A DNA stretch of 64,000 nt. It comes from Candidatus Acetothermia bacterium (GTDB taxonomy: Bacteria > Bipolaricaulota > Bipolaricaulia > RBG-16-55-9). Within the stretch, counting starts at the first letter, position 1. Every line of letters begins with the position of its first letter. The position numbers and the translations under genes are program-made. Location: contig JACQCZ010000014.1 of the NCBI GenBank assembly GCA_016201405.1, forward strand, positions 106,631 to 170,630. Direction: 5' to 3'. Below the pieces are notes generated by a model. The model saw only the letters and a program-made list of their open reading frames with translations, was not told the DNA's origin and ran no database searches. Of this stretch, positions 11,929 to 54,954 are shown one piece after another.

Positions 11929-12585
11929 TCACTCCCGCCGCTCAAAAGCTGTGAGTCTTAGCTGAAAGGTCGTTGTAAATTTCTGAGAGGTGTTTTGCAG
12001 AACGGATAGAACGGAAGTGCAGAAGGGAAGATCGTTTGAGCCCGTCCCCTTGATGTTCTCTCCGGTCTTTTGAAGTTGAATAAACGGCGGAAAGGGAAGC
12101 GTGGGATCCGCCGTGATAGCCAATATCGTTCTTTCGGCAGGTTTTGCATCGGTTGTCAAAACTCCACAGAGTGCTGAGACGCCTTCAATCGTCTCTTGAG
12201 CCCCAGTGACAAAATGCGCTCCGCCTGGCACGATAAATGTGGTGCTGGGGGTCAAGCTGGAGTGGTTTTGCAAAAGCGTCCTGACCGCCTCATCCTGGAT
12301 GATCAGCTGAGTCTGCGCGATGCCATTGACGACGCCATTCTCCATCTCATTGCGTGTCGCCAGCACCTGATTGGTGGTGGTCACCATGAGCTGATGATCA
12401 GCCGTCTCTTCGACTTTCCAGCCCAATTCGAGGGGATTCTGCAAGTCTGCCGTTAGAACTTCATAGGCAGTCTGGGTAAAGCCACCTGGATATTGCGAAA
12501 AATAGTCGCTCGTCTGTGCAAACAAAACCGAGCCGCAAACAACAACCAGAACTCCTGCGAGCACCCAACGATATTCACGTCTCAT
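11929..12585 (-). CDS. hypothetical secreted protein
   Basis: 218 aa; N-terminal signal peptide (VLAGVLVVVCGSVLFA); no recognised motif. Confidence 0.45.
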   Translation of the reverse strand: MRREYRWVLAGVLVVVCGSVLFAQTSDYFSQYPGGFTQTAYEVLTADLQNPLELGWKVEETADHQLMVTTTNQVLATRNEMENGVVNGIAQTQLIIQDEAVRTLLQNHSSLTPSTTFIVPGGAHFVTGAQETIEGVSALCGVLTTDAKPAERTILAITADPTLPFPPFIQLQKTGENIKGTGSNDLPFCTSVLSVLQNTSQKFTTTFQLRLTAFERRE

Positions 12586-12818: not shown

Positions 12819-13691
12819 TCACTTCTGTTCGGTGCGGTGTTTCTCTCTCATAAAGTGGAGAACTTTGATATCAATCTGACCTGGCTCGCCCTGCCAGCGC
12901 ATCTCCAGGTTCTCGATATTGTGAAAATTCTGCAGGGCGTCTCGGGTGGGCTGGTCGAGCTCGCCGCTGATCGCTCCGGAGTAGAGCTTGAAATCCAGAA
13001 GCATGGCTTGAATCTCTTTAATATCACCCATTTTGAGCTGGATCGTCTCTCGGGTCTCGCCAAAGTAAAGCTGCTGCAAATGAAAGATACGCTCTAACTC
13101 TTCAATGGGTCTTGTGTGGTCATCCACTCTCAGATCAACGAAGCGATCGGTGTAGCCGCCATAGCCACCTTGGACTTTCACGACATGGAGGGATGCCGAC
13201 TGCTGGCCGCGGCGATCTCCACCAGCGGCCTGACCTGCATGCAAAGAAGCAAGGGGGCGCTCCGCGAGCGCCCCCTTCGTGCTTTCAAATGCTTTAGACA
13301 TGCCGCGCACGACTTCCCCACCGGCTAAGATATTCCCCTGGCAGGCATACTGCTGCCCAACGTGATGCCCTGCCCACGGGAAGCACTCTTCGCCAGTAAA
13401 GGCGGCCGCACGCCCATTTGAATCTACAATCCCAACTTGCCGTTTCTCTCGGTCCTTATCGGCTTCAATCAGTCTCCTTAAGACCTCTTGCGCACTCAGC
13501 CCAGAGCGGAGCAGTCGCAGACCCTGTGCGCCGAAGCTCGTATTGGCATGCGATTGCGTCGCAATCACGCCCACTTCTGCCTCTGCCCACGGAACAACGG
13601 GTCCTACCGCCAGAAACTTCGACTGGACGGCCACACCCCACTCACGAGCCTCCAAATCGCAAGCGACGATCGAGAAGGTCGAGAGTCTCAT
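12819..13691 (-). CDS. DUF1028 family protein (Ntn-hydrolase-like) with C-terminal extension
   Basis: 290 aa; characteristic N-terminus MRLSTFSIVACD...GVAVQSKFLAVGPVVPWAEA...ATQSHAN. Confidence 0.65.
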   Translation of the reverse strand: MRLSTFSIVACDLEAREWGVAVQSKFLAVGPVVPWAEAEVGVIATQSHANTSFGAQGLRLLRSGLSAQEVLRRLIEADKDREKRQVGIVDSNGRAAAFTGEECFPWAGHHVGQQYACQGNILAGGEVVRGMSKAFESTKGALAERPLASLHAGQAAGGDRRGQQSASLHVVKVQGGYGGYTDRFVDLRVDDHTRPIEELERIFHLQQLYFGETRETIQLKMGDIKEIQAMLLDFKLYSGAISGELDQPTRDALQNFHNIENLEMRWQGEPGQIDIKVLHFMREKHRTEQK

Positions 13692-13707: not shown

Positions 13708-14736
13708 CTACATCCCTTTTGCCATTGTTATCTCAGCATTCAAGGCATCTTGCTCTGGCTTCGAGAGACCACCGATAAAGGCCGGGCTAAGATCCGAATA
13801 TGAGCCCACGACAATGATCCCGACCTGTCCCATGGCAAAGTGGAGAGCGCAAAAATACGGATAGCTTCCAGCAGGAGCATCGGCTGGGATTTTCCAGTCA
13901 TAGGTTCCACCTGGCATCAGCGTTCCCGTGTCGAATGAGTTCGCCGTACCGGCTGGAATCCCCTGGGTCTTGCCATTCTGGGCGGAGTAGGCAGTAGCGG
14001 TGTGAGGCATGCTTGCGTCTGTGTTGACGAAGTGAATGGTGTCCCCTGGGCTGGCCTTGACGACCTTGGGATCAAAGACGGCCTTGCCGTCGGCAGTCAT
14101 CAACAAGTCGACCTCAATGGTCTGACCCGTCGGCTTGGGTGTGGTGACCGTGATGGCCGTGGCCTTGGAGGCGTTTGTTCCCTTGTCGTTGTCGGTGACT
14201 GTAAGCGTCACATTGTAGGTGCCTGCTGCTGCGTATGGGTGATGAACTTTTGCACCAGAGCCCTTTGTGTTGTCGCCAAAGTCCCACTGATAGTCCGTGA
14301 TCGTTCCATCTGTGTCCTTAGATGAGCTGCCATCAAAGCTGACGTCGAGTGGAGCATCTCCGCTCGTCTTGTCCGCGGTGAAGGCTGCAGTTGGGTTGGC
14401 GTTCTTGACCGTGATGTTGATCGTAACCACTTTGCCCGCTGCGCCTTTGGCTGAATTTGCGGTCACTTTAACAGGGTATGAACCAGGCTTGTCGTAGGTG
14501 TGGCTAGTGGTGGCCGTGGCAACCTTGTCCGCCTTCTTGCCATCTCCAAAGTCCCAGGAGTAGGTCACGCCCGTTTCTTTGCTGTCCGATGAGGCCGTGA
14601 AGCTCACCACTTTGCTGTCCGTCGTGGCTTTGTCTTTTGGAGCAGTGATTGTTGCAGTTGGAGCTGCTGCGCCACAACCTGTGATGATCAACCCGACTAC
14701 GAACAGACACAAAACGAACGACAGTACTTTACTCAT
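13708..14736 (-). CDS. lipoprotein with two PKD domains and a C-terminal amicyanin/plastocyanin-like cupredoxin domain
   Basis: 342 aa; lipobox LIITGC; two PKD repeats (WDFGDG, YQWDFGDN); type-1 copper ligand pattern H...C-x2-H-x2-M (FCALHFAMG). Confidence 0.7.
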   Translation of the reverse strand: MSKVLSFVLCLFVVGLIITGCGAAAPTATITAPKDKATTDSKVVSFTASSDSKETGVTYSWDFGDGKKADKVATATTSHTYDKPGSYPVKVTANSAKGAAGKVVTINITVKNANPTAAFTADKTSGDAPLDVSFDGSSSKDTDGTITDYQWDFGDNTKGSGAKVHHPYAAAGTYNVTLTVTDNDKGTNASKATAITVTTPKPTGQTIEVDLLMTADGKAVFDPKVVKASPGDTIHFVNTDASMPHTATAYSAQNGKTQGIPAGTANSFDTGTLMPGGTYDWKIPADAPAGSYPYFCALHFAMGQVGIIVVGSYSDLSPAFIGGLSKPEQDALNAEITMAKGM

Positions 14737-14868
14737 TCTATATCTTCCCCCTTTAGGTGAAATGCTTTAGCAATCTCTTGATCGATCTCGTTCCGACTGG
14801 ACTCTGCAATGTCATGGCCCGACAGAATCTAACCATCAATGATTCAATCCTGTCAAGGCGGGAGACTC

Positions 14869-15501
14869 TTAACCATGGAGTGTTCTCTCTCTTTCTGGCC
14901 AACCTTCTTTCCCTAAAAGAGGCAAAAAGCTGCAGTCGCAGATCTCGCATTTGATGATCTCTCCTGCAGTCTTCTTCACGAGCAAAAGCTTCTGGATTTG
15001 GCGATTCCCCACAGGGATCACCAGGCGGCCTCCTTCACGAAGCTGCTCTACCAAAGAGGCGGGGATTTCGGGTGCAGCGGCTGTCGAGATTATGGCATCA
15101 AAAGGAGCCTTCTCCGCCCAGCCCTGCGTCCCATCTCCGATCTTGTACTGAATATTCCGATAGCCGATTCTGCTGAGGCGTCCCATCGCCTGACGGGAGA
15201 GAGCTGCCAAACGCTCCACCGTAAAGACTGCGGATGCCAGCTCAGCCAAAATGGCCGTTTGATACCCAGAGCCAGTCCCGATCTCCAAGACCCCATCCGA
15301 TGGCTGAAGCGCCAGACTCTCCGTCATTTTAGCCACAATATAGGGCTGCGAGATCGTCTGACCCTCGTCAATCGGCAATGGATAGTTGGCATACGCCTCT
15401 TCCCATCTCTCGGGTGCAATAAACTGGTGCCTTGGGATCATGCCCATCACATTCAATATCCGTTCATCTTGAATGCCCTGAGCTACCAGATGTCCAATCA
15501 T
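14869..15501 (-). CDS. pcm: protein-L-isoaspartate O-methyltransferase
   Basis: SAM-binding motif VLEIGTGSGYQTAILAEL and Pcm-like N-terminus. Start chosen at MIGHL; the ORF extends to 15567. Confidence 0.85.
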   Translation of the reverse strand: MIGHLVAQGIQDERILNVMGMIPRHQFIAPERWEEAYANYPLPIDEGQTISQPYIVAKMTESLALQPSDGVLEIGTGSGYQTAILAELASAVFTVERLAALSRQAMGRLSRIGYRNIQYKIGDGTQGWAEKAPFDAIISTAAAPEIPASLVEQLREGGRLVIPVGNRQIQKLLLVKKTAGEIIKCEICDCSFLPLLGKEGWPERERTLHG

Positions 15502-15604
15502 CAATTTGCGATCCTTCTGAGGCGAACCGCAAAACCCCTCTGCTCCCCTTTGACCATAATTCCTCACCCTTAAATTCTATGGAAGAAGTGGCCACTCTTC
15601 AACC

Positions 15605-16462: not shown

Positions 16463-17074
16463 TTAGCTGTGGAGAGAGCGGCGATCCAATTCGTTGTGGA
16501 CAACCGAAATGCAGTGATCTGCGTGGAGCACAACGGGGCCTAGGCTCACTTTTGTGCACTCTTTAAGCAGAAGCTCTTCATCGGGCGAAAAATTCTGGTG
16601 ATCGCTGAGCACAAATGCTACTGGCTGCTGAACTGGAGCAGACCGAATGTCAGTGCCGTGCTCATCTAAAACGTGACACAAGATATTGGTCTTTGCAAAG
16701 AATTCTAAAAGCACTCGCAATCCGCGTCTGGCCACATAGACACCAGGGGTGCTCTCTATCTCTTCGGCTTGGTCTGCAATATTCAATCTCTGAGCGCTTT
16801 CGATTGCATGTTTGATGAGCGCGCCCGTGCTTCGCTCATCGGGATTGAGGCGTTTTACTGTTGCGCCATCAAAACGCAGCGTGAGCTGATCCCGCAGAAT
16901 CAAATAGACTGCCACATCCTTGCGAATGCCATGGGAGAGACAGAACGAAGTGGTAATACAGCGCGCCAAGATGTCCATACGCCCGGCACTGCCCGGAAGA
17001 TCATTCAGAGTAAAATCAGGTGTGATGGAAGCTGCATGTCCCAAAATGACAAAGGTTCTCTGGTGATCAATCAT
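16463..17074 (-). CDS. trmY: tRNA (pseudouridine54-N1)-methyltransferase TrmY-like (SPOUT family)
   Basis: 203 aa; motifs LNDLPGSAGRMDILARCI...LSHGIRKDV and C-terminal LHADHCISVVHNELD match the archaeal TrmY pattern. Confidence 0.7.
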   Translation of the reverse strand: MIDHQRTFVILGHAASITPDFTLNDLPGSAGRMDILARCITTSFCLSHGIRKDVAVYLILRDQLTLRFDGATVKRLNPDERSTGALIKHAIESAQRLNIADQAEEIESTPGVYVARRGLRVLLEFFAKTNILCHVLDEHGTDIRSAPVQQPVAFVLSDHQNFSPDEELLLKECTKVSLGPVVLHADHCISVVHNELDRRSLHS

Positions 17075-19993: not shown

Positions 19994-20030
19994 CTTTCAA
20001 CCAACATCGCGGGCGCGAGCGGAGGCATTG

Positions 20031-21905
20031 ATGAGGGGGGCATTATTTCGCTGGATTCTGAGAGTTCTATTCTCTCTTCTTCTGGTCCTCTCCTTCGCTT
20101 ACCAAACTGGGCTTGCAGATGTCAGTCTAGATGTCGAAGTGGGCTTTGGAGGCCAATTCATGTCCGGCCAGTACACTCTCGTCCAGGTCGTCTTGCAATA
20201 TCAGGGCCCGCCTCTCACGGGAGAGCTGGCACTTCACCAAGAGTACAAATCTCCGCTCGAGAGCGAGAAGTCCTTTTCTGAGCGGCGCACGGTGCGCCTG
20301 GGCTCAAATGTCAACCAGCTCTATCAATTCTATTTCCCCGTCTCCCGCTCTCCCTGGCCCAATGAGGATCAGCCCGCTCTCTCCATCACGCTCTCATCCA
20401 ATGGGAGCGTGGTATTTTCGAAGCGCGTTCCCCTCGCCGGCGACGTTGAGCCACAGCCGCTCGTGCTCGGAGTGAGTGAGACCAACTTTCCCCGCATGCT
20501 CACGACAGGAGAGCGGATAGAGAGCGTGGGACTCAATCAGCTGCCGGAGGACTGGCGAGGATATGACGGAGTGAGAAGAATCTATCTGGGCCGCGCGAGA
20601 ACCGACCAGCTCACCAAGCGCCAACAAGACGCGATCCAGCAGTGGATCACACGGGGCGGAGAATTCGTGGTGCTCGGCGGTGAGAATTTCTACTTGCAGG
20701 ATTCTTCGTGGCTGCGCCAGATCATTCCGTTTGATGTCTCAGGAATCGAAGCGGCACAGGCCTCGTCCGATCTGCCCACGTATGTTGCAGGCAAGCCTCT
20801 CGGGGAAGTCCTCATTCAGCGGGCTGCGATCCCACTTCTGGTAGAGCAGCGGGTCGTCAATGGCATCATCTTCTTTTCCGTGCTCGACTTATCACAGCAG
20901 ACGGAATTGTCTCAAGCCATCTGGAACGACTTGCGGCAGACCTCTTCTCTGCTCGACAATCAGCCTCCTGATCTGGGCTCAAAGATTTTGGGAAACACCC
21001 AGCTCGCTTATCCATCAAAGCCGCTCCTTGGCGCTCTGTTGATTCTTTATCTAATAGGCTTTGCCTATATCAGCCTTTGGATGCTGCGGCAGCCCCTCAA
21101 CACCTTGCTCTCCTCTCCCGAGGGCGGTGAGATGCGCAGAAAGAGGCAGGGCTGGAAGGTGCTCGCCTTTGTTGTCGGCTGGATGCTCATCTTTGCAGTC
21201 CCGAGCCTTGCCTATCTGGGCCAGCCCAGATTTCACAGTTATTTTCAGTCTCTTGAGGTCGGGTTGATCAGAGCCCAGGAGGGATCGTCCTGGGGCTGGA
21301 GCCAGAGCTGGTACAGTGTCATCTCCAAGAAGGAGCGCAGCCTCTCGCTGGCAGCCAGCGACAACTCTCTCATCCTGCCCCTGGGGCAGACGCAGCTGGA
21401 ACTGCTGCAAGAACGCCCCGATGCGTGGGATTTGGACTTTTCACCCAACCCTATGAAAAGCTGGTCCACAGAGAACCTCTATACCGAAGAGATGGTGCCG
21501 CTTGACATCGGCGTACGCGCGGACAAAGAGGGTGGAGATGTCAGAGGCTCTCGGATTCAGGTCTATAATGGCAGCCAATGGAACCTGCGGGATGCCGTGC
21601 TCTTTCGCAACGGAGTCTATTATCCCATCGGAGAGGTCCCAGCCGGAAAGTCGCTCACCGCTGAGCTTAGCGGTCTGGGACTCAATGAGTGGTCACCATG
21701 GAGTGGCTTCAAAGACCTCTGGAGCATCGAGGAGCGGGTGAAGAATGTCATCATGAATCAGCTCGGGATTACGGATGAATTGAAGAGGGATCGCAGCCAA
21801 TGGGTCTTGCTCGGCTGGGCCGAAGTTCGCGCGCTGACTCAGGCTTACCGCGAAAATCGTCAGGGACTTTCACTCATTCTCATTCGCTCCAAGGAGCAAG
21901 AGTAG
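20031..21905 (+). CDS. hypothetical exported/membrane protein, first gene of the MoxR-VWA operon
   Basis: About 624 aa; N-terminal signal peptide, two central TM helices, no recognised catalytic motif. The ORF formally starts at TTG 20028. Confidence 0.5.
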   Translation: MRGALFRWILRVLFSLLLVLSFAYQTGLADVSLDVEVGFGGQFMSGQYTLVQVVLQYQGPPLTGELALHQEYKSPLESEKSFSERRTVRLGSNVNQLYQFYFPVSRSPWPNEDQPALSITLSSNGSVVFSKRVPLAGDVEPQPLVLGVSETNFPRMLTTGERIESVGLNQLPEDWRGYDGVRRIYLGRARTDQLTKRQQDAIQQWITRGGEFVVLGGENFYLQDSSWLRQIIPFDVSGIEAAQASSDLPTYVAGKPLGEVLIQRAAIPLLVEQRVVNGIIFFSVLDLSQQTELSQAIWNDLRQTSSLLDNQPPDLGSKILGNTQLAYPSKPLLGALLILYLIGFAYISLWMLRQPLNTLLSSPEGGEMRRKRQGWKVLAFVVGWMLIFAVPSLAYLGQPRFHSYFQSLEVGLIRAQEGSSWGWSQSWYSVISKKERSLSLAASDNSLILPLGQTQLELLQERPDAWDLDFSPNPMKSWSTENLYTEEMVPLDIGVRADKEGGDVRGSRIQVYNGSQWNLRDAVLFRNGVYYPIGEVPAGKSLTAELSGLGLNEWSPWSGFKDLWSIEERVKNVIMNQLGITDELKRDRSQWVLLGWAEVRALTQAYRENRQGLSLILIRSKEQE

Positions 21906-21907
21906 CG

Positions 21908-22666
21908 GTGTCCGCGCAAGAGCGCGCATCAGTAGCCAATCCCAAGAGCACTGCCCCGAAAATCCCTTGGCTGGGAACCGATTGGGACTACTGGTTCGAC
22001 CGCGAGACGTGGTCATCCCTGATGGCGTTTCTTCTGCTGTCGGGAGGCATCTTGCTCGTTGCCTTGCCGAACACAACCGAAGTCGGCAGGCTCACTCCCA
22101 AATCCATGGAAGCGACTGATCTCTTCTCGGCCCTCTATTCAATCTTATTTGGGATTCTGGCGATCACGCTTGGACAGGCCGAGTTGTCTTGGGGACATCG
22201 GCTCAGCAGCCAGGAGCATTTTGTTCATCTATTTAGCCGTCTGGTGGTGCCGCTGGTGCTCAGTCTGCCCTACTGGATTCTTTATATCTTCGCCAATATC
22301 ATGAGCCCACTTTTAATTATTGTACTCCTTGTGCATTTTATTTTATATGGTTATGTGCTCGGGCTTTGCGGCTGGCGGCTATCGCTGATGGGGCAGTCCG
22401 AGATCTTCCAATTCAACATCAAATATCTGAGCTACTTTGGGCTGGTCGCGATTACCTTCTTTGCTGCGCCGCTCCAGTTCATCAATCCCATCTTGGCGAT
22501 CACGGAGATTTTGGGGGAGAATGGCATGGCTCCCGCACTCAATCTGTTGGGCTTCTATACCGCATGGCTGGCGCTGGGTGCGGTCATAGCGTACTTGATC
22601 TTGCACAAACTGAATACGGAGAATCGAGAAATGGAGGAGTATGAAAACGAACTATCTCGTCGTTGA
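21908..22666 (+). CDS. hypothetical polytopic membrane protein
   Basis: About 253 aa with about 6 predicted TM helices; GTG start immediately after the upstream stop (the ORF track begins at 21800, overlapping the previous gene). Confidence 0.45.
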   Translation: MSAQERASVANPKSTAPKIPWLGTDWDYWFDRETWSSLMAFLLLSGGILLVALPNTTEVGRLTPKSMEATDLFSALYSILFGILAITLGQAELSWGHRLSSQEHFVHLFSRLVVPLVLSLPYWILYIFANIMSPLLIIVLLVHFILYGYVLGLCGWRLSLMGQSEIFQFNIKYLSYFGLVAITFFAAPLQFINPILAITEILGENGMAPALNLLGFYTAWLALGAVIAYLILHKLNTENREMEEYENELSRR

Positions 22667-24380
22667 GCAAGAGGTGATTGAGGCGCGGCGGCGGTTGAAT
22701 CGCCTTCAGGGTGTGCGGCTGGGGTTGACTCTCTCAGCCTCGCTGACGCTCGTCTATCTCATTCTCTTCTTCTTTGGCTGGGTACAGTTGATTCAGCCCT
22801 GGCCGATTCTCATTCTCTTTAACGCCATCTGCGGCGGACTCGGCATGATGTGGGGAGATCGGCGTCCAACGCGCCTCCAGCACGACCTGCTCCGTGTCGA
22901 CCGCGCGCTAGGGCTTGGCGAGAAGCTCACGACGATCTTTGAGCTTCGCCGGGGTGAGCGCTCATCCGACATCTTGGAAGCCCTCTATCGCCGGATTGAC
23001 CAGAGCCACGTCGATCCCAAAGAAGTCTTCAAGCTCCCCCGCACGGAGCAGAATGGCTGGTATGCGCTCGGCGGGATCACTGCCGGCATCTTGCTGATGA
23101 TCGGGCTTTGGGGGAATGGCCTCAGTCTCCTCCATATTGAGCAATGGCTCCAAGGTCTGCCGATAAATGAGCTTTCCAGTCAACAGACTCTCCTGGGTAA
23201 AGATGCACTGGATGGCTCACAAAGCGTTTTAGGGAAGGGCCAGAATCAATCGAATGCCAAAGATAAGAAGAGTGATGACGCAGCCTGTGAAAAGCAAGAC
23301 TCTTCTTCAACAGCCCTGAGCAGCGATGCAAATTGCGTCAATGGCAGAGATCAGAATTCACCTACAGATTCGCAAAATCAGACGGCGAAGAATCAAAATG
23401 GCCAGAATATGCCGCCAAACTTTCCACAGAGTCTGTCCGATTTGCTGCAACAGCTCCAGCAGGGGAATATCTCACAAGATGAAGTGCAAAAAGATCTGAG
23501 CAGCCTCGCCAATCAGCTTCCGCCAGGCCTGTTGCAAGATATGCTAAAAGACGCAGCAAAGAGCATGGATCCTGCTGACCTTGCGAAGCGGCTGGCCGAT
23601 GCCCTCAAGGAAGCACAACGTCAGGATGAGAACCAGAAGAAGCGGGCTCAATCCAATGACAAAAATGACAACCAGCCCTCTCCTCAAGGGGGCCCAGGCT
23701 CCAAAGGCCAGGGGATCCCGGGTATGGCCTCTGGAGACCAATTGGCAAATCAGAATCAAAACAACTCGAATAAATCAGGCACAGAAGCCCCGAACAGCGG
23801 GAGCTCTTCCTCACAATCCGGTGAGAACCCAGATCAGCCCAAAGGTGGGGATCAGTCAAACCAGTCTGGGCAGGCCGGGGGCAAGCAGGGCAGCAGTGAC
23901 TCCCTCTCCCAGAATGGCAAGAGCAAAAATGACTCACCCGACAAGAAAGATGAAAACGGGAAGAGCTCTGATGGCTCCGGCACGAACGACGGATCCAATA
24001 ACAGCGGAAGTAGTAGCGGCTCCCCTGAAAGCTCATCGGATGACGAGGGCTCTGGTGGCAAAGACTCATCGGGTGGCAATGGAGCCGGTGACACCGCTGG
24101 AAATGGCAAGGATGGGAAGAAGGATCAGTCTTTGACCATGGATAAGAGCCTGCTCATCCACGGCGCCAGTCTTCCGCAGGATGCTGAGCAGCTCAAGCGG
24201 TTAATTACGCTTGGATTGCCCGTGGATTTGCAAGGCACTCAAGCCGATGGGACACCCACGCTCAAGCTCAATATCGAGCGTGTCGAGTCGCTGCTCCAGC
24301 TCCGCGAGCTTCCCCCCAATCTGAGAGCGCTGGTCCGGGCCTATTTCTTGGCTATCGCCGGAGAAAAATCGTCCAAATAA
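22641..24380 (+). CDS. hypothetical membrane protein with a roughly 300-aa Q/N/S/D/G/K-rich disordered region
   Basis: 579 aa; N-terminal TM helices, third TM near residue 150, long low-complexity polar segment, conserved-looking C-terminal 80 aa. Start overlaps upstream stop by 26 nt. Confidence 0.5.
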   Translation: MKTNYLVVEQEVIEARRRLNRLQGVRLGLTLSASLTLVYLILFFFGWVQLIQPWPILILFNAICGGLGMMWGDRRPTRLQHDLLRVDRALGLGEKLTTIFELRRGERSSDILEALYRRIDQSHVDPKEVFKLPRTEQNGWYALGGITAGILLMIGLWGNGLSLLHIEQWLQGLPINELSSQQTLLGKDALDGSQSVLGKGQNQSNAKDKKSDDAACEKQDSSSTALSSDANCVNGRDQNSPTDSQNQTAKNQNGQNMPPNFPQSLSDLLQQLQQGNISQDEVQKDLSSLANQLPPGLLQDMLKDAAKSMDPADLAKRLADALKEAQRQDENQKKRAQSNDKNDNQPSPQGGPGSKGQGIPGMASGDQLANQNQNNSNKSGTEAPNSGSSSSQSGENPDQPKGGDQSNQSGQAGGKQGSSDSLSQNGKSKNDSPDKKDENGKSSDGSGTNDGSNNSGSSSGSPESSSDDEGSGGKDSSGGNGAGDTAGNGKDGKKDQSLTMDKSLLIHGASLPQDAEQLKRLITLGLPVDLQGTQADGTPTLKLNIERVESLLQLRELPPNLRALVRAYFLAIAGEKSSK

Positions 24381-24402
24381 ATCTCATTCAACGAGGGATA
24401 TC

Positions 24403-25389
24403 ATGACCATCGAGATGCAACTGGCAAAAACAGAAGAGGTCTTCCAGAAGCTGACGCGTGACATTCAGAAAGTTATTGTCGGCCACCAGGAGACTATCCG
24501 GGGGACGCTGATCTGCCTGCTCTGTGGCGGGCATGCTCTTCTCGAAGGCGTACCCGGGCTCGGCAAGACCCTCACCGTAAAGACGCTGGGTAAATTATTG
24601 GGGCTCTCTTTCTCCAGAATTCAGTTTACGCCCGATCTCATGCCCGCAGACATTTTGGGAACCAATATCATTGTGGAAGAGGGAGGCCGGAGGGCCTTTG
24701 AGTTTTCAAAGGGCCCCATCTTTGCCCATATTGTGCTGGCGGACGAGATAAACCGCGCCACCCCCAAGACGCAATCTGCGCTCCTCGAAGCGATGCAGGA
24801 GCGCGGGGTCACCATCTCCGGCAAAACTTATGTACTGGACGAGCCATTTATCGTTCTGGCCACGCAGAACCCCATCGAGATGGAAGGCACATATCCTCTG
24901 CCTGAGGCACAAGTAGACCGCTTCTTCTTCAAGATTGTCCTCGATCAGCCGACGCAAGAAGAGCTGGACGAGATTCTCAAGCGCCACATGACATCACCGG
25001 AAGTGAAGCACATCGCCGGAAGCGCCATCTCGCGCGAGACTCTAGTCGACGCAAAGAAGCTGATGGCTCAGATCCCTATTGCGGAGCCGTTGCGCCATTA
25101 CATCGTGCGGCTGGTCAATGCCACGCATCCCAAGCGGGATGAGGCAGCTCCGCTGGTCAAAGAATACGTCGAATATGGAGCGAGCCCGCGCGCTGGCATC
25201 GCCCTTCTCTGGGGCGCAAAGGCCAATGCATTCTTAGATGGCCAATTGAACGTTCGCATCGAAGATATTCAGCGCGTCTTTGTGCCTGCATTCCGGCACC
25301 GAATCATCCGCAACTTCCGGGGCGAGGCGGAGGGCATCGCCGTCGATGAGATCTTAAAACAAGTGATCGAGAAGACTCCCGAGGTATAG
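24403..25389 (+). CDS. MoxR family AAA+ ATPase
   Basis: 328 aa; Walker A GVPGLGKT, Walker B VLADEINR, and the MoxR sensor region. Confidence 0.9.
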   Translation: MTIEMQLAKTEEVFQKLTRDIQKVIVGHQETIRGTLICLLCGGHALLEGVPGLGKTLTVKTLGKLLGLSFSRIQFTPDLMPADILGTNIIVEEGGRRAFEFSKGPIFAHIVLADEINRATPKTQSALLEAMQERGVTISGKTYVLDEPFIVLATQNPIEMEGTYPLPEAQVDRFFFKIVLDQPTQEELDEILKRHMTSPEVKHIAGSAISRETLVDAKKLMAQIPIAEPLRHYIVRLVNATHPKRDEAAPLVKEYVEYGASPRAGIALLWGAKANAFLDGQLNVRIEDIQRVFVPAFRHRIIRNFRGEAEGIAVDEILKQVIEKTPEV

Positions 25390-25395
25390 CGGCAC

Positions 25396-26268
25396 ATGCC
25401 CCTTCTGCTCGATTCAGCCTATCTCAAAAAGCTCGAAAACCTGGGTCTGGTCATTCGGGGGCGCTTTCATGGCTATATGACCGGAAAGCGGCTCACTTCC
25501 CGCTCCGGGATGAGCCTGGAATTTGCTGAATACAAAGAATATTCGCCGGGGGATGATTTTCGCTATGTAGACTGGAATCTCTATGGACGCCTTGGGAAGC
25601 TCTTTGTCAAACGCTTTAACCGCGAAGAGGACGTTCCGATCTATCTCTTTTTGGACATTAGCCATTCGATGGCCATCGGAGAAAAGCTCAATTACGCCGT
25701 TCTGCTGGCGGGCACGCTGGCCTATTTAGGACTGAAAGAATTCAATCGCGTCGGGATCTTTCCGTTTGCCAGCGATCTGGCTCTCGGCGTGCCTCCCAAA
25801 GGGAGCTACAAACAGCTCTTCCAGATCTTCCATTTCTTAGAGAAAGTCGTGCCAGCGGGAGAGACCTCCATCAATGAGTCCCTGACGCGCTTTACGCGCA
25901 TCCGCCGTGAGAGCGGGCTGGCCGTCATTATCAGCGACATGCTCAGCGAGGATGGCTTTGAAGAGGGACTGGCACAGCTCCTCTATCATGGCTATGAGGT
26001 GATCGTCCTTCATCTGTTGGCTCCCGATGATTTGAATCCAGCGTGGAATGGCGAGATTCGCCTCAAAAATATTGAAGACCAGAAGGAGATTACAGTCCAT
26101 GTGGATCGCGCTGCGCTGAACGAGTACCAGACGGCCTTGGATAATTATCGTTCAAGACTGGAAGCATTCTGTCGTGAGCGCGGCATCCGCTATGCCCTGG
26201 TCTCTACGGACAGCCCTCTTGAGAAGACAGTCTTCGAGACCTTGCGGGAAGGGGCGCTGGTTCAATGA
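25396..26268 (+). CDS. DUF58 domain protein (MoxR partner)
   Basis: 290 aa; DUF58 signature YVDWNLYGRLGKLFVKRF and LFLDISHSM; directly downstream of MoxR. Confidence 0.85.
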   Translation: MPLLLDSAYLKKLENLGLVIRGRFHGYMTGKRLTSRSGMSLEFAEYKEYSPGDDFRYVDWNLYGRLGKLFVKRFNREEDVPIYLFLDISHSMAIGEKLNYAVLLAGTLAYLGLKEFNRVGIFPFASDLALGVPPKGSYKQLFQIFHFLEKVVPAGETSINESLTRFTRIRRESGLAVIISDMLSEDGFEEGLAQLLYHGYEVIVLHLLAPDDLNPAWNGEIRLKNIEDQKEITVHVDRAALNEYQTALDNYRSRLEAFCRERGIRYALVSTDSPLEKTVFETLREGALVQ

Positions 26269-28154
26269 CCTTTCTATCGGGCATTGCGCTCTGGCTTCTA
26301 GGCCTTGGTGCGATCATCACATTTATTTATTTCTTAAAGCGCCAGGCGCGGGTGCAGCCCGTCTCGACGCTCTTTCTCTGGCAAAGGATTGAGCAGAGGC
26401 CCCAGAGCGCGCTCCGTTTTCAGTGGACCCAGCTCCTCGGGCTCATCTTGCAGTTACTGGCTCTCACAGCCATTGTGGTGGGGATTGCCCAGCCGGTGAT
26501 CTACTCTGCCAGCGGCGGTGTGGGACGAATGGCCATTCTGCTCGATGGAAGCGCCAGCATGCGAGCGCTCATGCCTTCTGAAAAGATCACACGCTTTGAG
26601 CGGGCCGTACAGCGGGCTCAAGGGTTGCTCGATGAGAATCCGGCTGCCGAGGTGACCTTGGTCGAGGCACAGACGCACAGCGCAATCCTTGTACCGCCTA
26701 CCCATGATCATTCCTTCATTCGCAAGGCTCTGAGCGACGCCAGGCCGACGTATCAGGGGAATGCTGACTCGGGCGAGCTGCTCAGCCTTCTTCAAAGTCA
26801 GAGCAGCACAGGCTATGACCAAGTTGTCCTGATCAGCGATCAAGCTGCCAAGCCGCAGCAGCAGCAATTGGGGATTGATGTTGAGTCCGTCTTGGGAGAT
26901 GAATCTTCTGAAAATATTGCCCTTACGGACTTTTCTGTGCGTGAGCAGCCCAATGGCAAGGGGTATGACTTCTATCTCCAAGCCTGGAACTCATCGAGTG
27001 ATGCAGTAAACGTTCCGCTGGATATAGAAGCCGATGGGAAATCCGTCCAGTCGGATGTGATCACCATCCCCGCGCATGGCTCTCTCTCACGAACTTTCTC
27101 ATCGTCGCTTCGCTATGCGGATGAGTTTCGAGCCAAGATCGATACCACGGCTCTTCCCGACGACTGGAGCGATGATGACGTACGCTATGCGACATCTCCA
27201 CAGCCACCCCCCTGGAAGATTTTATGGGTAGGCAAGATCAATTTTTATCTAGAGAGCTTTTTGCAGAATTCAGGAGAGGTTGACCTGACCGAGAAGGCGA
27301 CCCTGGATGAAGCGGGAGATCTCAACCGCTATGACGTGGTCCTGCTCAATCAAGTCGATCTTTCGGATGCTCAGGCTGGCGCGGGTCATTATCTGGCATT
27401 TGGCGGCTCTTTTGGAAGCTATATCCTCTCCAAAAGCATTCATGATCTGACGAGTGGCGCGGTGGATGTCCAGAAAGATGACCCACTCTTGCAAGGGATG
27501 GACCCGACCGCTTGGCGACTGCTCCACATTCCGGACGCGGCCGTCGATCCCAAGGGAGAGGTCTTATTATCTTCCGAGAGTCTTCCGTTTCTTTATATTT
27601 ATGAGAAGCCGGGTCTGCGGCTTTCGTATATCGGAGCCGATTTGGAGGCTTCCAATCTTGTATTGTCGATTGATTTTCCAATACTGATCTATCGTCTGCT
27701 CTCTTGGCTTTCTCCCCGCTCTGGGGAGAGCACAACGCTGACGGCTGGAGACGAGCTTCCGCTATCATCATTAGAAAATATAAAGAGCATTGTCGATCCG
27801 CAAGGCAAGACCTGTCAATACAATTCTTCCGCAAGCCAGTGCGGCAGCTTGGGCGAGATCGGTTTCTATCAGGCCACGCGAGCCGATGGAGAGGCCGTGA
27901 CTTTCGCCGCCAATGCGGATCCAACAGAGTCTATTTGGGAGGATGCTTCGGATGCGGCTGCAACTGCAGTGACTCCGACGAGCTCACAGCAGGCAGGGTC
28001 ACTGGGCGACACGCCGCAAGCGTTAAAAGCGGCGATCCCTGTATGGCCCTATTTGCTGGCGATTGGATTGATCTTATTACTGGCTGAGCTCTTCACATTT
28101 CACCGTCCAACGGCAATTCCATGGCTGCCCTCCCTGGGGAGGAAGAGGGCATGA
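26265..28154 (+). CDS. BatA-like membrane protein with VWA domain
   Basis: 629 aa; N-terminal BatA-type TM region, MIDAS-like DGSAS motif, C-terminal TM helix. Start overlaps upstream stop. Confidence 0.7.
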   Translation: MTFLSGIALWLLGLGAIITFIYFLKRQARVQPVSTLFLWQRIEQRPQSALRFQWTQLLGLILQLLALTAIVVGIAQPVIYSASGGVGRMAILLDGSASMRALMPSEKITRFERAVQRAQGLLDENPAAEVTLVEAQTHSAILVPPTHDHSFIRKALSDARPTYQGNADSGELLSLLQSQSSTGYDQVVLISDQAAKPQQQQLGIDVESVLGDESSENIALTDFSVREQPNGKGYDFYLQAWNSSSDAVNVPLDIEADGKSVQSDVITIPAHGSLSRTFSSSLRYADEFRAKIDTTALPDDWSDDDVRYATSPQPPPWKILWVGKINFYLESFLQNSGEVDLTEKATLDEAGDLNRYDVVLLNQVDLSDAQAGAGHYLAFGGSFGSYILSKSIHDLTSGAVDVQKDDPLLQGMDPTAWRLLHIPDAAVDPKGEVLLSSESLPFLYIYEKPGLRLSYIGADLEASNLVLSIDFPILIYRLLSWLSPRSGESTTLTAGDELPLSSLENIKSIVDPQGKTCQYNSSASQCGSLGEIGFYQATRADGEAVTFAANADPTESIWEDASDAAATAVTPTSSQQAGSLGDTPQALKAAIPVWPYLLAIGLILLLAELFTFHRPTAIPWLPSLGRKRA

Positions 28155-30721
28155 TTCGGTTCAGCCAGCTCTGGCCGCTTCTCTTACTGCTTATCCCTAT
28201 CGGACTGCTCCTCTGGCAGTGGGAGGCGCTGAAGCGCTTTACCCTCGGCGACCGCATTTCGTTTGGGGCGCGGCTCGGAGTTGTGGCGCTTGGCATCCTC
28301 GCACTCTCAGGACCGCAATTGTTGAGCTGGACGGAATCGCACTACGTCTATTTTCTGGCAGATCTTTCCAAAAGCGTGAGCCCTCAAGACCGGGGTCAGC
28401 TGCTCTCGGAGCTTCGCGCACTCGCCAAGCCGCAAGAGTACACTCAATACGGCCTGATCGTCTTTGGGGTCAAGCCGTATGTCGAAGCTCCATTCAGCCC
28501 AATGTTAAATTTGAACGAGGTCTTGACGAATGTCGATAGTGAAGGAACAGATTTGCAGGCCGCACTGGAGCTGGCCATGTCAACCTTCCCCCGTGATGGC
28601 AAGAAGACGATTGTGCTTCTTTCCGATGGCCAGCCAAGCCAGGGAGAGACGACAGAGGCGCTGGCCCGCGCCAAACGGGAAGGGGTAGAGATCTTCACTT
28701 TGCCGATGGACCCGCCAGCCTCTGAGTTTTCAATCCAGACGATCCAGGCTCCACAAGAGGTCGCAGTCCAGCTCCCCTTCTCATTCCAGAGCGTCGTCTA
28801 TGCCTCACGATCCAGCACCGGAAAGCTGCTCACATACCGCAATGAGACACTGATTGACACAAAAGATGTCGCTCTGCGTCCTGGGCTCAATTACTTTTCG
28901 TATAGCGACAAAGTGAATGACCCCGGCAGCTATGAGTACCGAGCCGAGCTTGTTGTCGCTGGCGATGCGCTCCCTCAGAACAATCATTATCGCGCATTGG
29001 TCGATGCGATCGGCGATCCGCGCATTCTTCTGGTAGAGAACAATTCTTCAGAGCAAGAATCGGTGATGGGAAAGCTGTTAAAAAACTCTGGCTATGCCTT
29101 CTCCAAAGTGAGCCTGAATGAGCTGGCGCCGACAGCCAGCTCCCTGCTCTCATACCGAGCTGTGATTATGAACGAAGTGCCGCTCAAAGATCTCACGGCA
29201 CGGCAGACCGAATTTCTAGAAAATTATGTGCGCGATCTCGGCGGAGGGCTCTTCCTCGTCCAGGGCAGGCAGTCCGTCGAAGAGTTTTATGACCGCCAGT
29301 TTGAGCAGATGCTGCCCATCACCTATGAAGGTCCGCAAGAGATCCAGCGCCCCGCGCTCGCTTTGGTGATGCTGCTCGACCGCTCCGGCAGCATGGGCGA
29401 GATCGCCGGCGGTGATACCAAGGGCAGCTATATGAAGATCGATCTCTTAAAACAGGCAGCACGAGAGGCCGTCTCCAAGCTCGATGACAACAGCCTTGTC
29501 GGCATCATCGGCTTTGACTCGACCTACGACTGGCTGGTAGACATTGGCCCCGTGAAAGGTCGGAAAGATGAGATTTTAGCTGCAGTTGATAAGCTCTATG
29601 CCAATGGCGGGACAGACATCTATCAGCCTCTCAAAGATGCCGTCGCCCAGTTGCAGAAGCTGACCGCGCGCGTCAAGCACATTCTGGTCTTCTCCGATGG
29701 AAAAGTATCCCAGCAGGGGCGCGATTTCGATCAAATCTTCCAGGAGATTGCCGGCAGCACGATCAGCGCCTCATCCATTGCCATCGGAGCACAAGCCGAT
29801 TTTGACTTCATGTGGAAGCTGGCGGATGCGGGGAGCGGCGCCAAATATCCAGTGGCCGATGCGCGGGATCTGCCACGAATCACGCTGGAAGAGATGGTGC
29901 GGCTGGAACGCGCCCGCTGGGTCAAAGGGCCATTGGGTGTCGAGGCCGGACCCTTTGCAAATCAGCTGACTGGAATTGACCCCAGCACCATCCCCAATGT
30001 CGATGGCTATGTTCTGACGTTTGAGAAGCCAACGGCGCAGACGCAGCTTCAGGTCCGTGCTGACAAAGATCATGCAGACCCTCTGGTGAGTCAGTGGCAC
30101 TATGGTCTGGGCAAGGTCTTTGTGCTCAACACCAGCTTTGAAGGCGAAGGCCTGGAGCGCTGGAAGTCCTGGAGCGGACTGGGCGAGCTGAGCTCTGAGA
30201 TTCTGAGCCAGGTCTACAGCGAGAGCACCATCAAGCCCAAAGAGCTAGCCGTCTGGACAGATTCTTCTAACTCAACGCTGAGCGTCCATGTTGAAGCGGA
30301 CCGCGACGGCAAATGGCTGGATCAATTGGTAATGAATGGGCAACTCAACACACCGGATGGCAAGTCAATTCCTCTCGACTTGGAACAGACGGGACCAGGG
30401 ACCTATCAGGCCACCGTAAAAGATCTGAGCGAAGGCGTCTATCTGCTCAATTTGGGTGAAGATTCACTCGGTCAAGTCCAAGAGGCTGTCCAGATTCCCT
30501 ATGCAGCGGAGTACAAAAAGATTGGGCTGAATGAGCCACTTTTGCAACAGATCGCAGAAGTGACTGGAGGAGAATATCTTGAGAATCCAGATCGCTTGCA
30601 AGGCCTGTTGCAGGGCCGGACACTGATCTACCGGGATATCTGGCAGGAGATTTTATTGGCAGCCCTCTTCTTCTTTCTGGCCGATCTGGCTCTGAGAAAA
30701 GTGCCTTTTCTGCACGCTTAA
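28151..30721 (+). CDS. BatB-like membrane protein with two VWA domains
   Basis: About 856 aa from ATG 28151 (ATGA overlap); N-terminal TM, two MIDAS-like motifs (DLSKS and DRSGS), C-terminal TM anchor. Confidence 0.7.
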   Translation: MIRFSQLWPLLLLLIPIGLLLWQWEALKRFTLGDRISFGARLGVVALGILALSGPQLLSWTESHYVYFLADLSKSVSPQDRGQLLSELRALAKPQEYTQYGLIVFGVKPYVEAPFSPMLNLNEVLTNVDSEGTDLQAALELAMSTFPRDGKKTIVLLSDGQPSQGETTEALARAKREGVEIFTLPMDPPASEFSIQTIQAPQEVAVQLPFSFQSVVYASRSSTGKLLTYRNETLIDTKDVALRPGLNYFSYSDKVNDPGSYEYRAELVVAGDALPQNNHYRALVDAIGDPRILLVENNSSEQESVMGKLLKNSGYAFSKVSLNELAPTASSLLSYRAVIMNEVPLKDLTARQTEFLENYVRDLGGGLFLVQGRQSVEEFYDRQFEQMLPITYEGPQEIQRPALALVMLLDRSGSMGEIAGGDTKGSYMKIDLLKQAAREAVSKLDDNSLVGIIGFDSTYDWLVDIGPVKGRKDEILAAVDKLYANGGTDIYQPLKDAVAQLQKLTARVKHILVFSDGKVSQQGRDFDQIFQEIAGSTISASSIAIGAQADFDFMWKLADAGSGAKYPVADARDLPRITLEEMVRLERARWVKGPLGVEAGPFANQLTGIDPSTIPNVDGYVLTFEKPTAQTQLQVRADKDHADPLVSQWHYGLGKVFVLNTSFEGEGLERWKSWSGLGELSSEILSQVYSESTIKPKELAVWTDSSNSTLSVHVEADRDGKWLDQLVMNGQLNTPDGKSIPLDLEQTGPGTYQATVKDLSEGVYLLNLGEDSLGQVQEAVQIPYAAEYKKIGLNEPLLQQIAEVTGGEYLENPDRLQGLLQGRTLIYRDIWQEILLAALFFFLADLALRKVPFLHA

Positions 30722-52440: not shown

Positions 52441-54954
52441 ATGTTTAAGGGAACCTTAGCAAAGCCATACAAACTATTATTTTGTCTGCTCGCCTTGGCA
52501 GGGCTGTTGGCATTCTTTAGCAATGCATCTGTCTTAGCCCAGCGGCAGCCCGCCACTTCGAACCCGGCGCCGACGACGCTCCCTAAAGGGGACATCGTCT
52601 TTGTGATGGATGAATCTGGCAGCATCTTCAATGATGCGATGGCCGTAGACGCCAATTTGAACCAGATTGTCCAGCTCCTTGAGGGCGTCCTTGATTATCA
52701 AGTCGGCATCGTCGGCTTTGGCTCATATGTGGGGCACATGGGCACTCAATATGAAGGCCAGCCCTACATCAACCTAAAGCTGACGTCTGACATGAAGGCT
52801 TTTTCAAAAGCCCTCAAGACGCTAGTGACAGATGGCAATTTTGAGTATGGATTCGATGCCGTCAAGCTGGCCACTCAGGACGAGCTGGGCTTCCGCCCAG
52901 GCGCGGGCGTCTGCGTCGTGCTCATCACCGATGAAGATGCCGATCTCTCCAGTGAGCAGCCAGTCAGCCGCGAGGATGCTATTGCGGCCTTACAGAAGAT
53001 CCACGCCGATTTTCTCGGAATTGTGGACCCGTCGTATGGAACGACCATGCAAGATTACGGGCCATTGGCTGGAAGTCTGGCGCAGGCGACCGGTGGAAAA
53101 ATCTTTGATATCGCGAAGTTCCGCAAAGATGCAGGCCCGGTCCTGCGTGAGCTGATCTCATCGTGCGTCAGCACGGTTCAGAATAATAATCAAAACAATA
53201 ACCAAAACAACGGAAACACGGGCACCCCAAGCACACAGCCTCAACAACCCCAGCCTAGCTATGCAACCAGCGAAGAGCTCGATCAGCTCAAGATCGCCTT
53301 CACGGCGCTCTCCAACCAGAACACGGACTTTTTGGCTCGCCTGAGCCAGATTGTGAGCCGCATCGAGGCACTGGAAGCGAAGGGCAATGGGCTGCCAGCC
53401 GATCTTGAAGCGCGGCTCACGACCTATGAGCGCAACTTCCAGCGCATTGACATCACTTTCCAGAACTTTACTGCCAACTTCAATCAGTACAATTTGCGCC
53501 TTAATGACGCCGAGCAGAATATTGCCTCGCTACGGACTACAATTGCCGCTCTGCAAGAATCCAACCAGAATATGGCGATCCGAATGCAGAGCTTGGAGGA
53601 CCGCATCAAAGCCCTGGAAGGCTCTGACATTGGCGACCGCGTCAAGGCACTCGAAGCCGTCTTTGTCGAATTTGACAGCTTCAAGACCGACTTTGGCGCT
53701 CTGCTCAACTGGCGTGACGACGCCAAGCAGAGACTGGATGCGCTGGAGAAGGCATTTGCCGATGCGAATAACCAATTCAATGCTATCCACGCAACCCTGA
53801 CAGACTTACAAAACTCAGACAGCGGCATAAACTCGCGCGTCGACGACCTGACGGGACGTCTGAAGAGCTTGGAGGATCAGACCGCACAGCTCTCTTCGGG
53901 TCTTGGAGCACGGATCGATGCATTAGAGAAGCAGCTCGCCGGATTTGCTGGATATGAGGCCCGCTTCCAGGAGATCGAATCGAAACTCAATGGCATTGAT
54001 CTGAGTGTATATGATGCCAAATTCCAAACATTTGCTGGCGAGATTGATGCACTGCAAAAAGCCGTCACAGAGAACTCTCAAGATATCGCTTCGTTCAAAG
54101 ACCGGGCTTCCGCTTGGGATTTGGATCTTTCTAACTTGAAAGGAGCGGTTGGCTCCCTGGTCGATAAAGTGAGCGCCCTGGGCGGCCTGGTCCAGCAGGT
54201 CGCAGACTTGCAATCCGCCGTTCAGGGACTTCAGACAAAGCTCCAGGATACGCAAGACTCATTCTCAGCCCGATTTCAGACGAACGAAGCAAATTTGGAT
54301 GCCCTTAAGAAAGAGATCGATGGCGTCAATAGCGATCTTCAAGATTTGATCAAGCGCCTCAGCGACAAACCGTTCGCGCTTCAATCCGACTTGGATTCGC
54401 TCGCCTCAAGCTTGGGCAGCCGCATCCAGTCTCTCTTGCACCGCATCCAAAACTTGGAGGCGGCAGGACAGGGACCTGATCCCGAGACGAAGAGCCAGCT
54501 TGAGAACCTGGCCAACTTGATCTCGCAGCTCCAGGTGAGCCTGGCACAGCAGGCATCGAAACAGAATGCCGATTACGAAGAAGTGAAGAATCTGATCGCG
54601 GGTCATGAGGAATGGCTCCAAAAGATCGAGGCTTGGAAGTCGATGGATGACGAGCGGGTGGCTGGCCTCGATCAACGACTGACGACTGTGGAGGGTAGTC
54701 TCAATGACCTCTCTGCACAGCTGAAAGATAGCCAGAACAAGCTGACTGCGAATCAGAAGACGATGGGAGATCTCCAGCACTCTCTCACCGACTTGAAGAC
54801 CAAGCTGGATGACCTTGCCAATCGAATGGATGGACAGAGCAATGCGCTCGATCCCGCCAAGCTGCGCTCGGCTCAGCGTCTGGCAGAGATTGCCTTCCTG
54901 ACCGCAGTGGCAGCCATCGGAATCTCGCTGCTCTTCTTTCTATCCAAATCGTAA
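52441..54954 (+). CDS. secreted VWA-domain protein with long coiled-coil region and C-terminal TM anchor
   Basis: 837 aa; signal peptide, VWA with MIDAS DESGS, N/Q-rich linker, about 550 aa of heptad-like repeats (RIEALEA, RIKALEG, RVKALEA, RIDALEK), C-terminal TM helix. Confidence 0.7.
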   Translation: MFKGTLAKPYKLLFCLLALAGLLAFFSNASVLAQRQPATSNPAPTTLPKGDIVFVMDESGSIFNDAMAVDANLNQIVQLLEGVLDYQVGIVGFGSYVGHMGTQYEGQPYINLKLTSDMKAFSKALKTLVTDGNFEYGFDAVKLATQDELGFRPGAGVCVVLITDEDADLSSEQPVSREDAIAALQKIHADFLGIVDPSYGTTMQDYGPLAGSLAQATGGKIFDIAKFRKDAGPVLRELISSCVSTVQNNNQNNNQNNGNTGTPSTQPQQPQPSYATSEELDQLKIAFTALSNQNTDFLARLSQIVSRIEALEAKGNGLPADLEARLTTYERNFQRIDITFQNFTANFNQYNLRLNDAEQNIASLRTTIAALQESNQNMAIRMQSLEDRIKALEGSDIGDRVKALEAVFVEFDSFKTDFGALLNWRDDAKQRLDALEKAFADANNQFNAIHATLTDLQNSDSGINSRVDDLTGRLKSLEDQTAQLSSGLGARIDALEKQLAGFAGYEARFQEIESKLNGIDLSVYDAKFQTFAGEIDALQKAVTENSQDIASFKDRASAWDLDLSNLKGAVGSLVDKVSALGGLVQQVADLQSAVQGLQTKLQDTQDSFSARFQTNEANLDALKKEIDGVNSDLQDLIKRLSDKPFALQSDLDSLASSLGSRIQSLLHRIQNLEAAGQGPDPETKSQLENLANLISQLQVSLAQQASKQNADYEEVKNLIAGHEEWLQKIEAWKSMDDERVAGLDQRLTTVEGSLNDLSAQLKDSQNKLTANQKTMGDLQHSLTDLKTKLDDLANRMDGQSNALDPAKLRSAQRLAEIAFLTAVAAIGISLLFFLSKS

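Follow-up and report, generated by a model that had tools for sequence, protein, structure and literature searches.

A predicted lipoprotein with two PKD domains, a pseudoazurin-like cupredoxin head and a putative axial glutamine in a Bipolaricaulota bacterium

Cupredoxins are a standard system for the tuning of metal redox potentials, with the axial ligand as the main tuning element. Auracyanins are membrane-tethered members of this superfamily (auracyanin A is lipid-anchored), and are thought to link quinol oxidoreductases of the alternative complex III (ACIII) type to terminal enzymes. Natural sites with an axial Gln are known mainly from the stellacyanins of plants; the bacterial case is auracyanin D, which is green and has the lowest reduction potential known for a type-1 copper protein (+90 mV; PMC10804444). 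Here we analyzed a gene of an Acetothermia/Bipolaricaulota bacterium that lies in a 64-kb stretch of contig JACQCZ010000014.1 (the whole stretch analyzed is hereafter called the window) and is publicly annotated only as "PKD domain-containing protein". We consider it probable, though well short of certain, that this gene encodes a lipid-anchored, extracytoplasmic type-1 copper electron carrier that has a pseudoazurin-like head with Gln304 as the axial ligand and works as a respiratory shuttle.

The open reading frame (ORF) occupies 13708-14736 on the minus strand, with the ATG at 14736-14734 and the stop codon at 13710-13708, and encodes 342 aa. A strong Shine-Dalgarno sequence, AAGGGGGA, can be read directly 9 nt 5' of the ATG. 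The protein is identical to NCBI MBI1729960.1 and MBI3643266.1, and some of its homologues are labelled "plastocyanin" at JGI. Its N-terminus, MSKVLSFVLCLFVVGLIITG followed by C, consists of a positive n-region, a hydrophobic h-region and the lipobox I-T-G-C, i.e., the signal of a bacterial lipoprotein (a signal peptidase II substrate), and the lipobox Cys21 is invariant in all of the full-length homologues aligned (17/17). The Pfam model PKD_4 matched the protein in two stretches (133.8 bits, E = 2.3e-39), both PKD motifs (WDFGDG and WDFGDN) were found, as is consistent with PKD (PF18911/PF00801), and collagenase PKD structures matched the same region in a PDB sequence search (E = 1e-14 to 1e-15). 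The Pfam model Copper-bind (PF00127) matched residues 214-310 (37.5 bits against a gathering cut-off of 21.2, E = 3.3e-9). AlphaFold2 models reached a predicted local distance difference test score (pLDDT) of 90.3 for the full-length protein and of 94.4 for the cupredoxin domain alone (predicted template modelling score, pTM = 0.89). No other ORF of at least 80 aa in the window has a C-x2-H-x4-[MQ] or C-x2-H-x2-M motif; because of this, and because the ligand and lipobox residues are invariant in homologues, the feature is real and far beyond chance. An earlier note on this DNA had placed a lipoprotein with a lipobox, two PKD domains and a cupredoxin domain at exactly these positions, quoting the strings LIITGC (with Cys21), FVNTDASMPH (with His245) and FCALHFAMG (with Cys296, His299 and Met302). 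All three strings are present, and the lipobox and the profile matches bear out this much of its description. The features of the gene are as follows.

13708..14736, minus strand: complete ORF (342 aa plus stop) for a lipoprotein with two PKD domains and a pseudoazurin-like cupredoxin.
14746..14753, minus strand: Shine-Dalgarno sequence AAGGGGGA, by direct reading of the sequence.
14674..14736, minus strand: signal peptide with lipobox (residues 1-21) and predicted lipidated Cys21; the model has a helix at residues 4-17.
14407..14658, minus strand: PKD domain 1 (about residues 27-110), from Pfam PKD_4/PKD, a ColH PKD alignment starting at residue 47 and model beta strands over residues 27-110.
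14146..14403, minus strand: PKD domain 2 (residues 112-197), the best PKD_4 stretch (model positions 1-85 of 85), also matched by collagenase PKD structures.
13804..14121, minus strand: cupredoxin beta-sandwich (residues 206-311).
14002..14004, minus strand: codon of His245, the predicted N-terminal equatorial copper ligand, invariant and aligned with the plastocyanin ligand His.
13825..13851, minus strand: ligand loop Cys296-Ala-Leu-His299-Phe-Ala-Met302-Gly-Gln304, from the pseudoazurin, plastocyanin and family alignments and the loop classes.
13711..13803, minus strand: C-terminal extension with two model helices (318-322 and 326-341), pseudoazurin-like, with the family-conserved DLSxxFLNSLP...AK.

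Judged from sequence comparison and the structure model, the C-terminal domain is pseudoazurin-like and not amicyanin-like. When the domain was searched against PDB sequences, cyanobacterial plastocyanins (E = 2.5e-11) ranked ahead of pseudoazurins (E about 1e-8), and amicyanin reached only E = 0.55. The NCBIfam equivalog models for plastocyanin (TIGR02656, 42.4 bits, cut-off 87.85) and pseudoazurin (TIGR02375, 41.9 bits, cut-off 109.85) both scored below their cut-offs, and, in the comparison with halocyanin-type cupredoxins, the match to TIGR03102 was weak (E = 0.012). The AlphaFold2 fold is a Greek-key beta-sandwich followed by the two C-terminal helices, which are a hallmark of pseudoazurin. 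In a Foldseek search against the PDB, the top 14 matches were all pseudoazurins (E about 1e-10, about 30% identity), with alignments spanning 137-141 columns for a query of 139 residues; the rest of the top 50 were mostly plastocyanins, and native amicyanin was absent from these 50. Compared with the pseudoazurin equivalog, the domain has the two-helix extension, but it has neither the score, nor the axial Met, nor the form of a soluble single-domain donor to NirK. Amicyanin membership was rejected, given that Met302 is not conserved, that similarity to amicyanin in the PDB and in fold is poor, and that the loop is in the longer register; amicyanin is not the closest relative in sequence or structure, and the gene does not stand in a methylamine dehydrogenase (mau) context. 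The domain that had been called an amicyanin-like type-1 copper domain thus keeps its cupredoxin identity and its H/C/H ligands and loses its assignment to amicyanin. With the cupredoxin domain as the sole query, a word-indexed search for homologues gave one weak match, and an exhaustive profile search was used instead.

In the plastocyanin and pseudoazurin alignments, the counterparts of His245, Cys296 and His299 are equatorial ligands, and none of the three residues varies among the 17 homologues. Across the wider family, 597 of the 663 domain matches found by the profile search have the H/C/H triad. The ligand loop, C-x2-H-x4-X, has the length of that in plastocyanin and pseudoazurin. A gapless alignment of the pseudoazurin loop CTPHYAMGM with CALHFAMGQ puts Met302 on Met84, which does not bind the copper, and Gln304 on Met86, the axial ligand. 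The pseudoazurin sequence used here reproduces the ligand numbering C78/H81/M84/M86, and its Met16, Pro80 and Glu51/Glu54 agree with variant names in the titles of PDB entries matched by Foldseek. The plastocyanin alignment from the PDB search gives the same register, with Gln304 on the axial Met. As structures of both proteins have been solved, these alignments lend indirect support to a clustering of the ligands in space. Only 2/17 homologues have Met302, namely the window protein and a relative 92% identical to it; in the remaining 15, L, I, A or V takes its place. At position 304 (+5), by contrast, only Q, M or H is found, and the V-G that comes next never varies. We assigned loop classes by explicit sequence patterns over 608 domains. 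Short-loop domains of the wider family continue M-x-G-T-[IV]-V-V; the window protein reads [Q]-V-G-I-I-V-V, which is the plastocyanin-length register. The domains retrieved with a plastocyanin-length loop have Met (87), Gln (22) or His (4) at the axial position. Most likely, as far as these alignments can tell, Gln304 is the axial ligand and Met302 a non-ligand, and the Met of C-x2-H-x2-M, which the earlier note had taken for the axial ligand, aligns with Met84 instead.

The axial Gln, assigned by homology alignment, is conserved clade-wide. In a neighbor-joining tree the axial residue tracks clades, with Met in other clades and His arising twice. Gln is kept through a deep clade in which identity falls to about 45% and to which both reference-genome orthologues belong; it is therefore a maintained character and not a sporadic substitution. 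These two orthologues, the only ones found in reference genomes with the Gln-type subset of the alignment, are labelled "Candidatus Fraserbacteria bacterium", and one of them is RBG_16_55_9. In the literature RBG-16-55-9 is treated as an order or a metagenome-assembled genome (MAG) of Bipolaricaulota.

The homologues vary in several other respects. His stands at the axial position in P0003 (CAVHEMIGHVG) and P0181 (CTLHEGLGHLG), and four of the 608 domains are of this kind. Most close relatives in the Gln clade, and the His-type P0003, have an extra Cys pair beside the first His ligand, [VIT]-C-x-x-G-C-P-H (carriers: P0003, P0004, P0006, P0012, P0013, P0014 and P0024; family alignment columns ~301-310). 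Some Met-type relatives (P0018-P0021 and P0025) have a different Cys pair (AYC...SLCF), and neither pair is present in the window protein or in P0002. The extra Cys pairs may be disulfides or extra metal ligands. Tandem cupredoxin domains also occur in giant metagenome proteins (P0122, 1452 aa with 9 domains; P0125, 3670 aa with 12; P0128, 2938 aa with 10), many of them with short (C-x2-H-x2-M) or long (C-x2-H-G-x-P-G-x-G-M) ligand loops.

Starting from the architecture, the fold, the ligand conservation and the clade-wise axial residue, all of which the analysis shows, we propose the following mechanism. Signal peptidase II would cleave the precursor, and the lipidated Cys21, itself inferred, would tether the protein to the outer surface of the cytoplasmic membrane, where the two Ig-like PKD domains would form a semi-rigid stalk. 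The head would bind one copper through His245, Cys296 and His299, with the axial Gln304 (C-x2-H-x4-Q) replacing Met. If stellacyanin and auracyanin D are a guide, such a site should be perturbed (greenish), with a low reduction potential of about +90 to +200 mV. The carrier would then pass single electrons from a membrane quinol-oxidising complex to a terminal oxidase or an N-oxide reductase in facultatively respiring Bipolaricaulota. One candidate donor is the menaquinol:cytochrome c oxidoreductase of the NrfD/ACIII type that has been reported for RBG-16-55-9, whose MAG has an NrfD subunit of menaquinone:cytochrome c oxidoreductase (PMC7327174). Cytochrome c oxidases, Nar and Nrf are reported to be encoded by related Acetothermia, 'Ca. 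Acetothermum autotrophicum' among them (PMC9586279; PMC9992828 citing Youssef 2019). We infer a low-potential shuttle because of the axial-Gln analogy and because oxidases, Nar and Nrf, as well as NrfD, have been reported in relatives. Fusions within the family are also of interest: P0067 (L007, 996-2267) has the same architecture with an added C-terminal cytochrome c domain (CGACH; PF13442, PF00034), a Rosetta-stone fusion, and P0028 (L012, 431-1900) and P0129 have two tandem cupredoxin heads. Tethering is common across the family, with halocyanin-type relatives carrying a twin-arginine translocation (TAT) signal and a lipobox on the same domain. The shuttle would be a functional counterpart of auracyanin or halocyanin on a pseudoazurin scaffold.

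The gene lies in a housekeeping block that is syntenic in orthologous loci. Its immediate neighbours were assigned with Pfam.

12819..13691, minus strand: gene with DUF1028 (Ntn-hydrolase fold) and PG_binding_2, downstream, 16 nt after the stop codon.
14869..15567, minus strand: protein-L-isoaspartate O-methyltransferase (PCMT), upstream, same strand.

These two neighbours stay in place even where other genes of the block change: PCMT is directly upstream in 12/13 places, and DUF1028/PG_binding_2 is directly downstream in 11/13 (L001 9029-9892; L010 9021-9896; L011 9047-9919; L012 1897-2772). In six loci the start codon of the latter overlaps the stop codon of the cupredoxin gene or is separated from it by no more than 3 nt. 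The DUF1028 gene is retained in L012, where the upstream PCMT is missing. In L004/L005 (9111-9719; 202 aa) it has an internal deletion, with residues ~72-165 of the window orthologue gone, and in L006 and L007 it is absent; the adjacent cupredoxin is intact in all of these. Further upstream, Pfam identified an RNA methyltransferase (PF04013), a 4HBT thioesterase and a small ParB_N-like protein in addition to PCMT, and downstream, after DUF1028/PG_binding_2, there follow a 218-aa protein without Pfam match, a MacB/FtsX permease, phosphoribosyl pyrophosphate (PRPP) synthetase, L25 and Pth. Within the block, conservation is lowest for the cupredoxin gene (42-50% identity; PCMT 55-64%, intact DUF1028 62-67%, PRPP synthetase about 71%), which fits a faster-evolving surface protein. 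The order of PCMT and cupredoxin is reminiscent of pcm-nlpD in E. coli, where pcm likewise precedes a lipoprotein gene. The DUF1028 family has no characterized function and is barely mentioned in the searchable literature, and the only PDB relative of the DUF1028 protein is the hypothetical protein 2imh. A functional link of PCMT or DUF1028 with the cupredoxin is unproven. Promoter and terminator scans returned no more sites than in shuffled sequence, and we make no operon claim from them. No redox partner was found in the window: there is no oxidase or reductase among its Pfam-annotated genes and no CxxCH haem motif in any ORF of at least 80 aa, and NirK is absent from both the window and the related loci.

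Some other genes of the window deserve mention. The 218-aa protein (11929-12585, minus strand) has a signal-peptide-like N-terminus and recurs 3' of DUF1028 in L001, L002, L008 and L009 (47-51% identity). The PF04013 gene (Methyltrn_RNA_2; 16463-17074, minus strand) encodes a putative S-adenosylmethionine-dependent RNA methyltransferase of a family typical of archaea. A cluster on the plus strand (22641-30721) encodes a MoxR-type AAA_3 ATPase, DUF58, BatA/VWA and double-VWA proteins ("aerotolerance"-type Bat operon), and 5' of it are genes for proteins of 579 aa and 625 aa (20028-21905) without Pfam match. The protein of 837 aa encoded at 52441-54954 (plus strand) begins like a signal peptide and has a VWA domain in its N-terminal part, together with a very long coiled-coil region.

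Several observations weigh against a respiratory shuttle with an axial Gln. On sequence alone, Met302, two residues before Gln304, is an alternative option for ligation; no respiratory or redox gene is present in the window or beside the gene in the 12 related loci, where the neighbours are housekeeping genes; the tight coupling to the DUF1028 protein, which apparently has no signal peptide, is unexplained by a respiratory role; and most descriptions of the phylum are of anaerobic acetogens and fermenters. If the site were of the amicyanin type, Met302 of C-x2-H-x2-M would be axial and Gln304 uninvolved. The string C-A-L-H-F-A-M is literally in the protein and many domains of the wider family (205/608) have short C-x2-H-x2-M-x-G loops, but with the loop register and the variability of position 302 described above we regard such a site as very unlikely. 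We also think it unlikely that the protein handles copper, by periplasmic sequestration or as a chaperone in the manner of CopI or CupA, instead of carrying electrons. Electron transfer is preferred because the ligand set is the classical type-1 one for electron transfer, because the closest structures are electron carriers, and because the cytochrome c fusion in P0067 points the same way. There is no gene for a copper ATPase, CopZ, CueR or a multicopper oxidase in the vicinity, and membership of a copper-resistance operon was rejected on this ground. The earlier note had further suggested extracellular electron transfer, and a surface tether with a PKD stalk could indeed push the redox center away from the membrane, so that electrons would flow outward to minerals or other cells. 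However, two PKD domains make only a short stalk, no multihaem cytochrome or porin-cytochrome genes occur in the window or in related loci, and we found no precedent in the literature; this suggestion is unsupported and we hold it to be extremely unlikely.

A different explanation is that the cupredoxin is the dedicated partner of a co-transcribed DUF1028/PG_binding_2 protein, possibly together with PCMT, in an uncharacterized process specific to Bipolaricaulota. The close downstream spacing and the upstream PCMT reported above favor such a partnership, as do the persistence of DUF1028 where other flanking genes differ (L004 and L012) and the lack of a terminator-like site between the two genes. 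However, the loci all come from a single lineage in which synteny extends widely (orotidine monophosphate (OMP) decarboxylase, TrkAH, Methyltrn_RNA_2, 4HBT, PRPP synthetase, L25 and Pth), and shared history may thus account for the linkage. The N-terminus of DUF1028, by our reading, is unlike a signal peptide, which would put the protein in another compartment than the lipoprotein; PCMT, normally a cytoplasmic repair enzyme, would be separated from the lipoprotein in the same way. The loci in which DUF1028 is internally deleted or absent beside an intact cupredoxin also argue against a dedicated partnership, which seems to us rather improbable. A combination of the two ideas, in which the Gln-type PKD-cupredoxins are a long-kept, axial-Gln lineage of the pseudoazurin fold, serve as carriers of unusually low potential fitted to the low-potential menaquinone chains of a phylum of acetogens, and form a functional unit with the coupled DUF1028/PG_binding_2 protein, is doubtful and somewhat less probable than the partnership taken by itself; if true, it would give DUF1028 its first functional context. 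The respiratory shuttle remains the explanation we prefer.

The protein clearly belongs to the cupredoxin superfamily, and automated pipelines already recognize its domains. It departs modestly from a well-known kind of protein and is unsurprising in principle. In the searchable literature we found no description of the architecture of lipobox, two PKD domains and pseudoazurin-like domain, no clade-wide natural axial Gln on a pseudoazurin/plastocyanin scaffold with Met and His sister clades, and, among the papers listed, no blue copper protein in the phylum Bipolaricaulota. Sister clades with Gln, Met or His on one pseudoazurin-like scaffold constitute a natural mutational series for the tuning of potential. 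The gene also marks which lineages of Bipolaricaulota/Acetothermia, usually deemed strict acetogens or fermenters, carry respiratory-type electron carriers. A practical gain is a better annotation than the current public one.

Among known systems, pseudoazurin (Alcaligenes faecalis, 1PAZ; Methylobacterium extorquens, 1PMY) shares the loop length and the C-terminal helices with the window protein, but has Met86 where the latter has Gln304, and is a soluble protein of 124 aa rather than a lipoprotein with two PKD domains; NirK, which it serves as donor, is not nearby here. Cyanobacterial plastocyanin (2GIM, 1FA4) is the best PDB sequence match; its four ligand positions all align and its loop is likewise C-x2-H-x4-X, but it lacks the C-terminal helices, has an axial Met, and is soluble and photosynthetic. 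The likeness to amicyanin lies in the cupredoxin domain and the literal C-x2-H-x2-M string. Stellacyanin and the phytocyanins share an axial Gln in a type-1 site; in contrast, they come from plants, have the rusticyanin/stellacyanin sub-fold and are absent from the top structural matches. The halocyanin-type TAT-lipoprotein cupredoxins (P0255, P0259 and P0266) are close relatives in the profile search and combine the same cupredoxin and C-terminal helix with a lipobox and a spacer of low complexity, but differ in the TAT signal, the axial Met and the lack of PKD domains. Auracyanin D of Chloroflexus resembles the window protein in its axial Gln, and is the bacterial precedent for such a ligand and for a very low potential (PMC10804444).
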